This document shows positions 12,938 through 25,839 of a stretch of 64,000 nucleotides of DNA, piece after piece. The stretch lies in NCBI RefSeq assembly GCF_054482595.1, contig NZ_CM137008.1. One strand, 5' to 3'. A program made the position numbers and the translations under genes. Each line of letters opens with the position of its first letter. Position 1 is the stretch's first letter. The notes beneath the pieces were generated by a model. That model had not been told where the DNA came from, made no database searches, and saw nothing but the letters and a program-made list of their open reading frames with translations.

Positions 12938-14197
12938 TTACTTAACCTTCGCAGACTGGATGACGGAGTCCATATTTTTAAACTGGCGGGCATTGACAAT
13001 AAGATCGCGCGCCATGGTCAATGCACGTCGTTCACATTCTGCGCGAAGCTCTGTATTTTCAATCTGTTTCAGCTCGGCAACGCCAGCAAAACCAATGATC
13101 CGGCGATTCATTTCCATGCCGGCATTCACCAGGGAATCTTCAAGCAGCGTGGCAAAAAACTGATCCTGTGCGTCCTCAAGAGCGGCCCTGTTCTGTTGAT
13201 ACATTTCTGTCGGCCACGCGTCACCCTGTGTTTTGTTGTCCCAGAGCTGGCGGAACTCCCGGGTGAAAACTGACCAGGTGTGGACAATCTGCTGAAGTAG
13301 CCATTCCTGATAGTCAGCGCGACGTTGCTCATTTGCATCCCACCCAGGGCGTGAGAAGAACGCCAGCAGGAGGTTGCCAATATAGTTGCCGATATCAAAC
13401 GCCATTGGTCCCATGAAACCGAACTCCGGATCAATCACTTTGGTATCCGTGTCGGTCACCATGATTGAGCCTGAATGAAGGTCACCATGTAACAATGCCT
13501 GCGCTTCTGTCATAAATTTGTACTTATAACGCATGGCAACCTGGAGCATCTCTACATCAGCCCAGGCCTTATGGACGGCATCGTCCAGCTCAGGAGAAGT
13601 CCAGTTATTCCGTTCCGCGTTGTAATAGGGCTCTGTGAAGATCAGATCTTCCGTAATTTTGCACAGCTCATGATTTAACGCGAACTCAGCAGTAAGCGCT
13701 TTTTTCTGTTCTGCTGACATGCCAATGTCAGACGTATTAAAGAGAGTCTGTGCTAAAAATCTGCCGATATCTTCAGCTAGCTTAGGGAATTTTTTACCGT
13801 TAATCAGTCCCTTACGCAGAATTACGTGAGGCGTCAAATACTCCATGGCAAACAGTGCCATTTCCGGGTCATAAAAATAGACCTGGGGAATCAGTGTGTG
13901 ACCCGCGTACTTGGCTTCCTGACATAAGACGTTGTACTCAAAGCCCGCACGGCTCAGAGATAAAGGCCATCCTTCGCCCCCTGCACGAAGCCAGGGCAGA
14001 GCTTGTTTTACAATGATGGTTTTATGTGTCCCCTTAACGATAAACACCATGTTCAGGTTTCCGTCCCCCACTTCTGAAACTTTCCACTCTTCTGGTAACC
14101 CTCCCGGTTCGCATGAAGGGGTCAGTCTGGACGAGAGATAACCAGGCAGCGTGTCACATGTCAGCGGCTTGTAACCTGATGGAATTGAATCCGTCAT
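12938..14197 (-). CDS. mtnK: 5-methylthioribose / 5-deoxyribose kinase
   Basis: 419-aa protein-kinase-like fold with MtnK hallmarks (EVGDGNLNMVF, HGDLHSGSIMV, KVIDPEFGFMGP). Confidence 0.85.
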   Translation of the reverse strand: MTDSIPSGYKPLTCDTLPGYLSSRLTPSCEPGGLPEEWKVSEVGDGNLNMVFIVKGTHKTIIVKQALPWLRAGGEGWPLSLSRAGFEYNVLCQEAKYAGHTLIPQVYFYDPEMALFAMEYLTPHVILRKGLINGKKFPKLAEDIGRFLAQTLFNTSDIGMSAEQKKALTAEFALNHELCKITEDLIFTEPYYNAERNNWTSPELDDAVHKAWADVEMLQVAMRYKYKFMTEAQALLHGDLHSGSIMVTDTDTKVIDPEFGFMGPMAFDIGNYIGNLLLAFFSRPGWDANEQRRADYQEWLLQQIVHTWSVFTREFRQLWDNKTQGDAWPTEMYQQNRAALEDAQDQFFATLLEDSLVNAGMEMNRRIIGFAGVAELKQIENTELRAECERRALTMARDLIVNARQFKNMDSVIQSAKVK

Positions 14198-14711
14198 AAC
14201 AGTTCTCCTTGTCTACACAGAATGATAACTGACTTATCATATGGCAACTATACTTTATCATGTGTAAAGTAATTTGTGATGCATGTAGATTTTTTGAACT
14301 GGAGAAAATTAAAAATAATGTTGTATGGAGTCATGATCTTTACAGGAATTAGTAGGGTGCATTCCTGTTATTTATATAAAATTCATTGTATTACATAAAA
14401 ATGACGGTGCTGCGCGGGGAATTGTCTCGGGCAATCTTAGACGAAAGGAAGTATTGAAGTGACAGAATAATCTACATTTTTTATACATGTGTATTTTTCT
14501 GTTGTCTTTTGTTTTTAGCGTATGGTGTTTTTATGCCGATGTCTAATAGACAGATAGATTCGAGGGCCAACAGCCCCATTATCATGATGGAGCAACAGAG
14601 GTGAGTCTAACGTTTCCGTACTTCTTATCGATCGGCACTAACAATCCTTTGTGATAACGGTATTCCCACACAGAGAAACCCACGTACCTGAATAAAAAAA
14701 AGATTACTGGT

Positions 14712-15130
14712 GTGGAAATGGGATTAACAGATTATGCCATCAAATCGGATGGTAATGAGGTCAATAATCCTCGTCATCTCATTAACGTCAACTGTAATCT
14801 GCGACGCAAATTAGCCAGCATGATGAATAACAAACACAATCTGGCAAGAGCGTTAGGTGATGCTGATTGGCACGGCTTTATCAACAAACTGGAGTACAAG
14901 GCAGCCGAAAAAGGCGTTCATCTGGTAAAAATCGACCAGTAGTTTGTCTGTTCGAAAAGCTGCTATTGTTGTGGTTACAAAATGTCGCTTCAAAAACGGA
15001 TCTGGCGATGCCCTGAATGCGGTGTTGAACATGACCGGGATATAAATGCGGCAATCAACATAAAACTTAAAGACATACAGGAATTAAAGGCGGCGGGCCC
15101 CGTCGTCTCTGTCTATGGAGGAGCTGCGTA
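14712..15130 (+). pseudogene. tnpB: IS200/IS605-family TnpB C-terminal remnant with an in-frame TAG stop
   Basis: Single reading frame gives ...AEKGVHLVKIDQ*FVCSKSCYCCGYKMSLQKRIWRCPECGVEHDRDINAAINIKL...; the zinc-finger and RuvC-III region of TnpB is present, the N-terminal ~2/3 is absent, and there is an in-frame TAG at 14940-14942. Confidence 0.7.
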
Positions 15131-15395
15131 AACCCGTCGTACAGACGGTTGCAGCCTGAAAAGTGGGAAGGCCTTGCCCGATTGGGCGGGGAGTAGTCAC
15201 CCTTGGAGTCATTTTTATCCGGTGTATTAATATGCTCCTAATAGTTAATCTGGTTATAATATTTTTTTTTTGATTATGATCACGAAAATATCTCGGTTTT
15301 TATTTGCAAAACTTGAAACGTGAATCCAAAAAAGATAAATATTTGTCCGCAGTGACTTCTTTTCTGTTGAAAAGTTCAATCTAAAGGGCAAAAAA

Positions 15396-16508
15396 ATGAA
15401 AAAAATTACAGTGGCACTTTCTGTGGTTGCGGCATCTGTTCTGATGGCAATGTCTGCACAAGCGGCAGAAATCTATAACAAAGACGGTAACAAACTGGAT
15501 CTGTACGGCAAAGTTAATGCAGAGCATTACTTCTCTTCTTCAGCTAGTGATGACGGGGATAAAACTTATGCTCGTATGGGTTTCAAAGGTGAAACTCAGA
15601 TTAATGACCAGTTAACCGGTTTTGGTCAGTGGGAGTACGAATTTAAAGGTAACCGTACTGAAACTGAAGGTTCTGATAAAGATAAAACTCGTCTTGCGTT
15701 TGCAGGGCTTCGCTTTGGCGATTATGGTTCGCTCGACTATGGTCGCAACTACGGTGTAGCTTATGATGTTGGCGCTTGGACTGACGTGCTGCCGGAGTTT
15801 GGTGGAGATACCTGGACTCAGACTGATGTATTTATGACCCAGCGTGCTACTGGCGTAGCGACCTATCGTAACAATGATTTCTTCGGCTTGGTTGATGGTC
15901 TGAACTTTGCTTTGCAGTATCAAGGTAAAAATGATAGTGCTGCAAAAGTGAATAACTGGAAAGGCCGTGACGAAGTTGAATCTAATGGTGATGGCTTTGG
16001 TCTGTCAGCTACTTACGATTATGAGGGATTTGGCGTTGCTGCAACCTATGCAAAATCTGACCGTACTGATGGGCAGGTATCCTATGCTAAAGACAGCCCT
16101 CTGAATGCCTCTGGTAAAACTGCTGAAGTATGGGCTACGGGCCTGAAATATGATGCAAACAACATTTACCTGGCTGCAACTTATTCTGAAACTCAGAATA
16201 TGACAGTCTTCGGTGATGACCATATCGCAAACAAAGCGAAAAACTTTGAAGCTGTTGCTCAATACCAGTTTGATTTCGGCTTGCGTCCGTCCATCGCTTA
16301 CCTACACTCTCGCGGTGAAAATATTGGTGCGTTCGGTAACCAGGATCTAGTTGAATACATCGACGTAGGTGCGACTTATTACTTCAACAAAAATATGTCC
16401 GCTTTCGTTGACTACAAGATCAACCTGATTGATGAAAGTGAATTTACCAAAGCATCTGAGGTTGCAACCGACAACATCGTTGCTGTTGGTATGACCTACC
16501 AATTCTAA
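15396..16508 (+). CDS. Outer-membrane general porin, OmpC/OmpF/PhoE family paralogue
   Basis: Signal peptide followed by [17 protein letters not shown], conserved porin motifs ([25 protein letters not shown]) and C-terminal ...VAVGMTYQF; a Rho-independent terminator follows. Confidence 0.9.
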
Positions 16509-16663
16509 TTTTGGTAGGTAAGAATATGCGGGAAGGGAGTGATGTCACTGCCCGCATATAGGTGGCACCCTCATGCCACCTTTGAAGAGGCAATTTTATT
16601 GCCTCTTCTCAATTTAACTTCATGTTATTTATTACCCTTTTATTGATTTGAAACTCTATTGTT

Positions 16664-16690
16664 GGGGCGCTTTGTTGCGCCCATTTTTTT
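16664..16690 (+). terminator. Rho-independent terminator downstream of the porin gene
   Basis: GGGGCGC-tttgtt-GCGCCCC stem-loop followed by ATTTTTTT; a second perfect hairpin GAAGAGGCAA-tttta-TTGCCTCTTC lies at 16584-16608. Confidence 0.7.
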
Positions 16691-16742
16691 ACACCAATTA
16701 GGTAAAGTTATTTTTAAGTAATCGAGCAACTTGATCCTACCC

Positions 16743-17975
16743 ACGTAATGTGGACACGGCCCTAAGCGAGATTATGGTTTTCAAATTGTTCCGGGCTGAG
16801 ACCGCCACAGGCACTGTGACGACGCCAGCGATTGTAATCACACTCGATATAATTAAACACCGTTGCCCGCATTATTTCCCGGCTGCTAAAGCGTTCCCCG
16901 TGGATACATTCCACCTTCAGCGAATGAAAGAAGCTTTCCACACAGGCATTGTCATAACAGTAGCCTTTCGCACTCATACTGCCACGCAGGTTGTGTCGCT
17001 TCAGCAGCGCCTGATAATCCCCTGAACAGTATTGACCACCACGGTCCGTATGAACAATGACGCTTTCCGGGCGTCTTCTCCGCCACAACGCCATTTGCAG
17101 TGCATCACAGGCCAGTTGTGCTGTCATTCGCGGTGACATCGACCAGCCAATGACGGCGCGTGACCACAGGTCGATGACTACTGCGAGATACAACCAGCCC
17201 TCATCGGTACGCAAGTACGTGATGTCACCCGCCCACTTCTGGTTCGGGCCACTGGCGCTGAAGTCCTGCTCCAGCAGATTCTCCAATACGGGCAGACCAT
17301 GTGCACGGTAGCTGACCGGGCTGAACTTCCGGCTGGCTTTCGCCCGCAGCCCCTGACGACGCAGGCTGGCGGCAATGGTTTTAATATTGAACTCCGGCAG
17401 TTCGTCAGCAAGGCGGGGATCACCGTATCGCTGCTTTGCCTCAAAGAATGCCTTATGGACAGCGGCATCGCAGGTGAGCCGAAACTGTTGGCGCAGGCTC
17501 ATCTGGTGACGACGCCTGAGCCAGACATACCAGCCGCTGCGGGCAACCCGAAGTACACGACACATCGCTTTGATGCTGAACTCTGCCCGATGATTTTCGA
17601 TGAAGACATACTTCATTTCAGGCGCTTCGCGAAGTATGTCGCGGCCTTTTGGAGGATGGCCAGTTCCTCAGCCTGCTCCGCCAGTTGTCGTTTAAGGCGG
17701 ACATTTTCAGCGGCCAGTTCGCTTTCGCGCTCTGACGAACTCATTTGTTGCTGCTGTTTACTGCGCCAGGCATAAAGCTGAGATTCATACAGGCTGAGTT
17801 CACGGGCTGCGGCGGCCACACCGATGCGTTCAGCGAGTTTCAGGGCTTCGTTACGAAATTCAGGCGTATGTTGTTTACGGGGTTTCTTGCTGATTGATAC
17901 TGGTTTTGTCATGAGTCACCTCTGGTTGAGAGTTTACTCACTTAGTCCTGTGTCCACTATTGGTGGGTAAGATCA
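16743..17975 (-). mobile_element. IS3-family insertion sequence (IS3-like), ~1.23 kb, orfA/orfB with overlapping frames
   Basis: Terminal inverted repeats TGATCCTACCCACGTAATGTGGACAC (left) and GTGGACACAGGACTAAGTGAGTAAACT...TGATC (right, reverse strand); OrfA (17613-17912) is IS3 InsE-like and OrfB (16762-17616) has the DDE integrase core; the two ORFs overlap as expected for a -1 frameshift. Confidence 0.9.
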
Positions 17976-24225: not shown

Positions 24226-24657
24226 ATTTGTTACTCGCCCGGTTTTATCGTTAGGGTAATGTAATATTTCGAGGGAGGAAGTGTTATTCTGTATTTTGTT
24301 TTCGTTATTATGAAAATTTGCATATGTGATGTTTATCACAAAGATGTTAACTATCTGTCAATAAAAAGACTCCAGCAAATGTAAACGTTTTACATCGCTT
24401 AAGCCTATGGAATTTACATAAAAAAAGGGCGTGCCGAGTCTTTCGACCCAATCATTATCTCGGTAACTCCATTCACAAGAGCAGGAAATAACCTCTTCAA
24501 CAAATAACAGACTGATGCCTGCGAGCGCGCTCCCCAGGTTTCCGGGCTGAAAGTACCGCCGCACTCGTTTAACGCGGAACAGTCTGTGTTGGCGGTTTAA
24601 TGGTGGATGTTGCTGTAGACCACAACTGATGAGGCAACGGAGTTTACCGTGATGATT

Positions 24658-25839
24658 CCTATTTATCATTTTCTGGTCAGTGCCGCGATTCTGGTATTCA
24701 TGGTGATTTTCTGTCAGACACGCCATCGCGACCACCGTAACTGGCTGGCTCTGCTGCTATTCGTATTATGATCTGTAAACAGCTGGCCATTGCGGATGGT
24801 TAAAGGAACAATTGTGGGGACAACTGACACATTGCGTAAAATGCAGCGTTATGAACAACTGAGTCAGCACGGGGCTGACAGCTGGAAAATCCTGCTGGGA
24901 GCACCGTTATATGACACGATTGTTATTGTCACTAGTGAGAGTGTGCGCAGGAATTATATGACAGCGTATGGCTATCCCGTATCAACCACACCGTGGCTGA
25001 ATATGGCACCCGGTTTATTTATTGACGGTTATAACTCGACAGCCTCCAGTACTGTGCCTTCCCTGAGCCGGACACTGATTTATGACTATGAGCAGCCCCC
25101 TGATTCCGACAACAACGTGGTGGCGCTGGCAGCAAAAGCAGGATACAGCACATAGTGGATATCCAATCAGGGAAAACTGGGGGAGTATGACACACGCATC
25201 TCTGTTATTGCTTCTGATGCGGAGCATACCGCTTTCCTCAAGAAAGGCAGCTTCGCTTCCCGTAAAACAGATGACAAACTGTTGTTACAGGAAACAGAAC
25301 GTGCGCTGGCGGATACATCCTCTCCGAAGATAATTTTCCTGCACATGATGGGTTCTCATCCAAATCCGTGTGACAGCCTTAACTCCTGGCCGAATAATTA
25401 CCTGGAGCAGTATCCCCGAAAAATTGCCTGTTACCTCGCCAGCATCAGTAAACTGGATAACTTTCTTGGCCAGCTTGATGGTATCCTTCGCCGGTACTCA
25501 CGTCATTTCGCCATGCTTTACTTTTCTGGCCTTGGGCTGTCGGTCAGCGACAGTGCTAATCCTGTTCATCATGATGGTCATGTGCAGGGGGGCTACAGCG
25601 TTCCCCTGATTATTACCGCCAGTGACATCACGTCTCATCAGTCCGTCAGCAGGAAAATCAATGCCCGTAATTTCGCAGGCATTTTTCAGTGGCTGACCGG
25701 TATTCGTACCGAAAATATAACGCCATTCAATCCGCTGACAGACGAAGATAATGAACCCGTTATGGTTTTTAACGGAGAGAAAAATGTGCCGGCAGACAGT
25801 CTGAAACCGCAGCCACTTATTCTTCCGGACCACAGGTAA
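24658..25839 (+). pseudogene. Phosphoethanolamine transferase (sulfatase-family, EptA/YhbX-like) pseudogene, truncated and frameshifted
   Basis: Two adjacent ORFs in different frames (24790-25155 and 25282-25839) carry sulfatase-domain motifs (YGYPVSTTPWLN; IIFLHMMGSHPNP); a short transmembrane peptide is encoded just upstream; the N-terminal membrane domain is missing. Confidence 0.55.

Follow-up and report, generated by a model that had tools for sequence, protein, structure and literature searches.

A decaying 3' fragment of an ISEc46-like TnpB element with a partly retained omega-RNA-type scaffold beside an OmpC-like porin gene in Escherichia coli

Results

A lesioned tnpB fragment between mtnK and a porin gene

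At 14644-15200, the 64-kb stretch of DNA analysed here (the window) carries what is left of an ISEc46-like TnpB element (IS200/IS605 family), a decayed 557-bp piece from its 3' end, identified by homology and lesion mapping (Table 1). It is flanked on the left by mtnK (12938-14197, minus strand) and on the right by an OmpC-like porin gene (15396-16508) and ISEc16. Translated in the phase of position 14640, the frame reads ...KKITGVEMGLTDYAIKSDG...DADWHGFINKLEYKAAEKGVHLVKIDQ, a stop, FVCSKSCYCCGYKMSLQKRIWRCPECGVEHDRDINAAINI...GGAA and a further stop, the two stops being TAG at 14940-14942 and TAA at 15129-15131. The conceptual protein matched Pfam PF07282 (Cas12f1-like TNB) with an E-value of 6.5e-24 and NCBIfam NF040570 (guided_TnpB) with 104.7 bits, where the cut-off is 100; its homology to TnpB is far above chance. 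These matches bear out a sequence-only reading of the same DNA, which had recognised an IS605-family TnpB remnant with its RuvC-III and zinc-finger region. RefSeq annotates a pseudogene at 14641-15159 as 'RNA-guided endonuclease InsQ/TnpB, frameshifted; internal stop; missing N-terminus'. The pseudogene status of this tnpB is thus already known, and the fragment is an ordinary IS200/IS605 fossil.

The lesions were placed by nucleotide and protein alignment to two intact relatives, the tnpB of an IncI-type plasmid (locus L003) and that of ISEc46 (locus L004). Residue roles in the remnant were assigned through the homology of the intact relative to ISDra2 TnpB (PDB 8BF8, 8EXA and 8H1J; residues 4-382 aligned, E 6e-78), the catalytic triad D191/E278/D361 and the zinc residues being those listed in PMC10097598. 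Homology begins at 14644 and includes the RuvC-I motif, upstream of position 14712 where the sequence-only reading had let the remnant start. That reading had also held that the N-terminal two thirds were lacking. The N-terminus is indeed gone, but the loss covers the first ~162 codons, or the N-terminal ~41% (the WED/REC half), and the internal deletion of 56 codons is a separate event. Within the RuvC D-E-D triad, Asp is replaced by Glu at position I, Glu is deleted at II, and Asp is retained only at III. Translation confirmed the amber codon that had been pointed out, and the intact relatives have TGG in its place. One 3-nt insertion is also present. The remnant had been taken to stop just before 15131; a TAA is there, but it was made by the frameshift and is not the ancestral end, the true stop being a TGA further downstream. 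A test for a complete tnpB ORF was negative on account of the truncation, the amber codon, the frameshift and the 56-codon deletion. The protein, judged by its coding sequence, cannot be functional and is dead several times over, as had been supposed before the truncation, deletions, triad loss, amber and frameshift were mapped together.

Table 1 Features of the TnpB remnant, its scaffold copy and the adjoining DNA, in window coordinates
Feature	Position	Strand	Description and basis
TnpB pseudogene remnant	14644..15159	+	5'-truncated, starting at ~codon 162 of a 391-codon gene; RefSeq, Pfam, NCBIfam, alignment
Left junction	14646..14647	.	14646 is the last base of the DNA upstream of mtnK that ~1,070 other E. 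coli genomes share; tnpB sequence starts mid-gene right after it
RuvC-I catalytic position	14715..14717	+	GAA (Glu), GAT (Asp) in intact relatives; motif G-L/V-D-M-G-L
168-nt (56-codon) in-frame internal deletion	~14811..14812	+	Helix region and RuvC-II Glu (VIVETL) gone; alignments
In-frame amber	14940..14942	+	TAG for TGG (Trp) of the conserved DQWF motif
CCCC zinc finger, kept	Cys codons 14961, 14970, 15009, 15018	+	Homology to ISDra2 TnpB
9-nt (3-codon) deletion	14987/14988	+	Alignment
RuvC-III Asp, kept	codon 15039-15041	+	HDRD; homology to ISDra2 TnpB
+1 insertion (A at ~15122)	15122..15131	+	Premature TAA 15129-15131; ancestral stop TGA 15157-15159
omega-RNA-type scaffold remnant	15088..15200	+	113 nt, overlaps the tnpB 3' end; alignment, fold, covariance model
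Scaffold helix 1	15088-15094 / 15102-15108	+	
Scaffold helix 2	15112-15116 / 15163-15167	+	
Scaffold helix 3	15120-15127 / 15151-15156	+	
Scaffold helix 4	15134-15138 / 15144-15148	+	
Scaffold helix 5	15172-15179 / 15184-15191	+	
Putative pseudoknot	loop 15097-15100 with tail 15195-15198	+	Loop altered at 15098 and 15100
Subterminal right-end hairpin (helix 5)	15172..15191	+	Resembles the left-end hairpin of intact elements
Right-end boundary	15200..15201	.	...GGAGTAGTCAC then CCTTGG...; 48 insertions and ISEc46 empty-site comparison
Guide-equivalent flank	15201..15216	+	CCTTGGAGTCATTTTT; 16-nt guide of the predicted omega-RNA, placed as in ISDra2
OmpC-like porin gene (15396-16508) and the region upstream that belongs to it	15211..16700	+	Context, outside the IS; 96% identity to an IncHI1B-type plasmid locus

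Distribution and genomic setting

Of 5,426 complete E. coli genomes, 12 carry the region 14200-15400; ten of these chromosomes match it at 100% and the other two at 99.8% or more. A stretch of 7.1 kb about the locus is the same in the window and in E. coli O157:H16 strain Santai (NZ_CP007592.1). Locus L002, used for comparison, runs collinear with the window at 96% identity as far as 14646. Since tnpB homology starts at about codon 162, just where the shared E. coli DNA stops, a rearrangement at 14646/14647 would have removed the WED/REC half together with the left end and any tnpA. In one carrier (NZ_CP170179.1), IS903B of the IS5 family has inserted into the remnant at the equivalent of ~14800 and splits it further.

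On the other side, the IncHI1B-type E. coli plasmids that share the porin locus carry phage-type genes (ssb, lysozyme and holin) next to it, and the chromosomal porin therefore looks acquired from a phage-plasmid. No TnpB lies upstream of the plasmid porin loci, where the DNA upstream of the equivalent of 15211 is unrelated and AT-rich. Every contig found by a homologue search with the porin was an E. coli chromosome that also has this remnant; in one further case the copy is broken by IS903B. A search for the ancestral state found no plasmid bearing both the TnpB part and the porin, and an exact 26-mer of the right flank had no match among metagenome contigs. Directly downstream of the porin gene lies ISEc16 (16762-17923), an IS3-family element with a programmed frameshift. 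Beyond ~17975 the gene content of the 12 carriers differs, with thymidylate synthase and ISApl1 in SCEC020001 and an MFS transporter and pepT in Santai, which the window follows from there on; ISEc16 therefore marks a recombination breakpoint. Further along, at 24619-25839, a phosphoethanolamine transferase pseudogene with an internal stop and a missing N-terminus (NZ_CP007592.1 annotation) adjoins a tyrosine recombinase and a CP4-type island with cbtA/cbeA.

The right end of the element and its target motif

A genome-wide search with the intact TnpB of the IncI plasmids yielded 80 loci, from Photorhabdus, Serratia and Rahnella to Idiomarina, Halomonas and Vibrio. In 48 of the 80, similarity to the window ends at exactly 15200, after ...GGGCGGGGAGYAGTCAC, and the flanks beyond are unrelated. 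When the filled ptrB-yebE site of ISEc46 was compared with the empty one, 1,763 bp were found inserted directly after TTAG without duplication. The terminus given by this comparison, ...GCAGTCAC / ...GGAGCAGTCAC, agrees with window position 15200. Photorhabdus copies also have TTAG directly before the element. Because 48 insertions lose similarity at this point and the ISEc46 terminus falls there too, these alignments set the right end of the element at 15200; by the same comparisons, TTAG is the target (TAM-equivalent) of the clade. Alignment to intact elements, proposed with the sequence-only reading as a check, has thus defined the right end, and similarity to an IS right end, whose absence would have told against that reading, extends up to 15200.

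The string GGGCGGGGAGTAGTCAC at 15184-15200 occurs once in the window. A search of the window for the left-end motif gave nothing above chance-level matches with 4 mismatches, and the left end and TAM are absent; no tnpA adjoins the remnant, and the right end is the single end present. The left and right ends of ISEc46 read CCCTCGCCCAATGCGGGCGGGG and GCCTCGCCCGACAGGGCGGGG, respectively. Subterminal hairpins of IS200/IS605 elements are bound by the TnpA transposase, and given its likeness to the left-end hairpin, helix 5 is probably also a single-stranded DNA hairpin bound by TnpA.

A covarying RNA scaffold in the intact family

RNAalifold was run on an alignment of the window with 34 distinct intact copies, each over its final 230 nt. 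Five helices with 31 pairs were found within the last ~113 nt of the family elements. Paired cells made up 98.2%, compared with 37-55% when the partners were slid by 1-3 columns, and compensatory double changes were present at 14 pairs (100 cells), compared with 3-5 pairs when slid; none of 500 shuffles matched any observed pairing measure. Although helices 1-4 fall within coding sequence, they covary in the family alignment. G-U pairs are frequent, being found in 35/35, 25/35 and 22/35 sequences at three positions, which favours a sense-strand RNA over DNA.

In addition, the helix-1 loop GACU (about -102 to -105) may form a pseudoknot with AGUC in the tail (-6 to -3), with an A and a G juxtaposed at -2. 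The two motifs can pair in 31 of the 34 intact copies. Since both sides are nearly invariant, support for this pseudoknot comes from homology to ISDra2 and not from covariation. The ISDra2 omega-RNA has a 116-nt scaffold with stems 1-4 and a pseudoknot, followed by a 16-nt guide; the pseudoknot joins -103 to -105 with -5 to -3, and -2A contacts -106G (PMC10097598). RNAalifold also called a long-range helix between columns 69-71 and 248-250; we discarded it, preferring the ISDra2-like pseudoknot that involves the loop of helix 1. An Rfam scan of 14000-15600 with E-values up to 10 returned chance-level snoRNA and sRNA matches alone and no omega-RNA family.

The scaffold copy in the window is retained in part

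The sequence-only reading had proposed that a structured RNA might be retained downstream of the dead gene, at 15131-15250. The scaffold and the right end are indeed present, but the placing does not hold. The scaffold overlaps the 3' end of the gene, the element ends at 15200, and 15201-15250 is flanking DNA, of which the first 16 nt would be the guide. In the window copy, 29 of the 31 family pairs can still form, and the two broken pairs of helix 3 can be replaced in a shifted register that pairs GCUGC with GCAGC. Folding and comparison with known scaffolds, suggested together with that proposal, predicted the same architecture as in the intact plasmid copy (-48.1 versus -53.7 kcal/mol), with a layout like that of the ISDra2 omega-RNA. 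A covariance model trained without the window gave a full-length match at 15079-15200 with 96.6 bits (E ~1e-23), the sole match in the 64 kb. Intact copies reach 136-140 bits on the same model, although they are in its training set and score high by construction.

On the other hand, at columns conserved in at least 90% of the sequences, the window scaffold has 10 private deviations, where intact copies average 1.9. Two private 1-nt insertions, at 15122 and 15170, are absent from the other 34 sequences. A-to-C at 15098 and U-to-C at 15100 turn the loop from GACU into GCCC and would break 2 of the 4 putative pseudoknot pairs. In the minimum-energy fold, helix 1 closes over this loop, with 9 bp and a 3-nt loop where the intact copy has 8 bp and a 5-nt loop, as the two substitutions would permit. 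Retention of the scaffold is therefore partly supported, at the level of sequence and predicted secondary structure, and the RNA region shows the same relaxed constraint as the gene. That the stems are so well kept (29/31, with re-pairing in helix 3) may point to some constraint on the RNA, which counts against reading the fragment as a mere fossil.

Guide, promoter and possible activity

No second match to the guide-equivalent sequence within 2 mismatches was found in the window. Nor did the K-12 ompC/micF region, the ompF gene without its promoter, or the yddG- and yedS-linked porin loci contain anything within 4 mismatches of the 16 positions; two of the porin loci compared are paralogous porin pseudogenes and not canonical ompC. 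A promoter scan gave 4 promoter-like sites where 3.9 are expected, none of them positioned to drive the scaffold, and a terminator scan gave one weak terminator-like site inside the dead ORF. A literature search on orphan or remnant omega-RNAs gave nothing relevant. Retained function is not supported, because the scaffold is decaying and no promoter, left end or TAM, or target was found.

Protein for such an RNA could in principle come in trans from the intact TnpBs of the clade in E. coli. These occur in a minority of strains, with ISEc46 in ~401 genomes and sequence of the IncI-plasmid TnpB type at 346 places on plasmids.

Related elements and known systems

ISEc46, an IS605-group element of E. 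coli, shares with the window copy its tnpB clade (75% nucleotide identity over 14823-15200), the right-end terminus and the scaffold helices. It differs in being complete: besides a left end and the TTAG target it has tnpA and an unbroken tnpB (product WP_001551234.1), whereas the window holds a lesioned 3' fragment. The closest relative found is a TnpB-only (IS1341-like) element of IncI plasmids (WP_000942657.1), with 81% nucleotide identity over 14803-15200 and 75% over 14644-14810. It has the same right end and scaffold, but it is intact (391 aa), has a left end and is plasmid-borne, while the window copy is chromosomal and dead. With at most 81% identity to anything found, the window copy is a distinct lineage. 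On the IncI-type plasmids (L003, 729-2065, and L005), the intact element has both ends and no tnpA, and it lies in the leading region between psiA and ardA, directly after psiA, with TCAG and not TTAG before it. An intact RNA-guided nuclease is thus among the first genes entering a recipient cell, which may merit a look of its own. In one genome of Photorhabdus thracensis, at least 14 loci encode the TnpB-only element. Several of these copies are 5'-truncated at varying points within the left end, with similarity starting at locus position 1341, 1369 or 1394, and most reach the right end.

The family scaffold resembles that of ISDra2 from Deinococcus radiodurans in its length (~113-120 versus 116 nt), in the geometry of the putative pseudoknot between stem 1 and the tail, including the A/G at -2, in the tetraloop of stem 4 at about -21 to -18, and in a guide that lies past the right end. 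The target motif differs, being TTGAT in ISDra2 (PMC10097598) and TTAG in the clade of the window copy, which moreover lacks a protein and has a damaged pseudoknot loop. The window RNA has no detectable primary-sequence identity to any Rfam family. A further likeness is to the TldR systems, which are TnpB-derived, have lost RuvC residues and adjoin an acquired surface-protein gene, as the remnant does. TldRs have intact ORFs and a guide matching a host promoter, whereas the ORF of the remnant is destroyed and no guide target was found at the loci compared.

Discussion

Our data indicate that the locus is very probably a decaying, non-working 3' remnant of an ISEc46-like, ISDra2-type TnpB insertion sequence, of low biological weight. 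Decayed copies of IS200/IS605 elements are common. The element would once have sat with its right end at 15200, upstream of the acquired OmpC-like porin gene. A later rearrangement at the left junction would have stripped tnpB of its first ~162 codons, together with the left end and any tnpA, and inactivating lesions would then have followed: the 56-codon deletion, the Asp-to-Glu change at RuvC-I, the amber codon, the 9-nt deletion and the +1 frameshift. In intact members, the last ~113-120 nt before the right end would act as an omega-RNA scaffold with four stem regions and a pseudoknot as in ISDra2, and the 16 nt past the right end as guide, so that the TnpB-RNA complex would cut empty sites flanked by TTAG and keep the element in place. 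The stems of the window copy would still be present because the fragment is young and not because they are used. The most likely mechanism at the locus today would be none at all, the remnant awaiting deletion.

Some use of the RNA was weighed against this. The right end and scaffold might be transcribed as an orphan guide RNA that an intact TnpB of the clade, from ISEc46 or from the leading region of IncI plasmids, would load in trans, with CCTTGGAGTCATTTTT as its guide. The scaffold stems are kept and match the covariance model over their full length, and intact clade members with 75-81% nucleotide identity circulate in E. coli chromosomes and plasmids. Against it stand the two substitutions in the loop of the putative pseudoknot, over which helix 1 is predicted to close, a pseudoknot that in ISDra2 is the conserved core recognised by TnpB (PMC10097598); the two private insertions; promoter sites not above chance; and a guide for which neither the window nor the host porin loci compared gave a second match. 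We give this explanation a slim chance of being right, and a very slim one to loading by a related intact TnpB such as that arriving in the leading region of incoming IncI plasmids. If it were true, an IS fossil in the chromosome would supply the guide of a plasmid-encoded nuclease, or would serve as a decoy that titrates it. The layout of the locus, a TnpB relic directly upstream of a porin also found on phage-gene-bearing plasmids, superficially recalls a domesticated system in which a nuclease-dead TnpB and its guide RNA, beside an acquired porin, would repress the host counterpart, in parallel to phage TldR and fliC. TldRs, which are TnpB-like nuclease-dead repressors, have been described (bioRxiv 10.1101/2023.11.30.569447). 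The remnant has no intact ORF, being truncated and interrupted by the amber codon and the frameshift, the plasmid porin loci have no TnpB upstream, and the best match of the guide-equivalent sequence in the K-12 ompC/micF region, the ompF gene (without promoter) and two other porin loci has at least 5 mismatches in 16. Domestication of this kind is barely credible.

The remaining alternatives concern what the conserved parts encode. Two of the 12 carrier genomes (NZ_AP025682.1 and NZ_CP170179.1) have a RefSeq CDS 'zinc ribbon domain-containing protein', and the ORF at 14982-15131 (49 aa) begins with ATG, which could suggest a functional small zinc-ribbon protein. What this ORF covers, however, is just the end of the dead tnpB in its original frame, with an internal Met as its start and the frameshift-made stop as its end; it contains the second half of the CCCC finger only, and the same DNA is annotated as a pseudogene in the other 10 of the 12 genomes. 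A working protein is extremely unlikely here, and the 49-aa CDS call in two carriers is probably an annotation artefact. The conserved structure might instead consist of single-stranded DNA signals for the TnpA transposase alone, with no RNA involved. Helix 5 fits such a view in resembling the left-end hairpin, as expected for subterminal hairpins bound by TnpA, but helices 1-4 have no left-end counterpart and covary despite lying in coding sequence. Their many G-U pairs would turn into C-A mismatches if the opposite strand were used, and would be weak in DNA; the layout of helices 1-4 matches the solved ISDra2 omega-RNA almost position for position. A purely DNA-level role is very unlikely.

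If the remnant RNA did work with a plasmid TnpB, it would be an example of cross-talk between an IS fossil and a mobile nuclease; the evidence points away from this and towards a decaying remnant. The by-products of the analysis are an exact right end, a TTAG target and a covariation-supported omega-RNA model for the clade of ISEc46 and the IncI-plasmid TnpB. This family model lets annotators mark guide-RNA remnants and separate intact copies from decaying ones.
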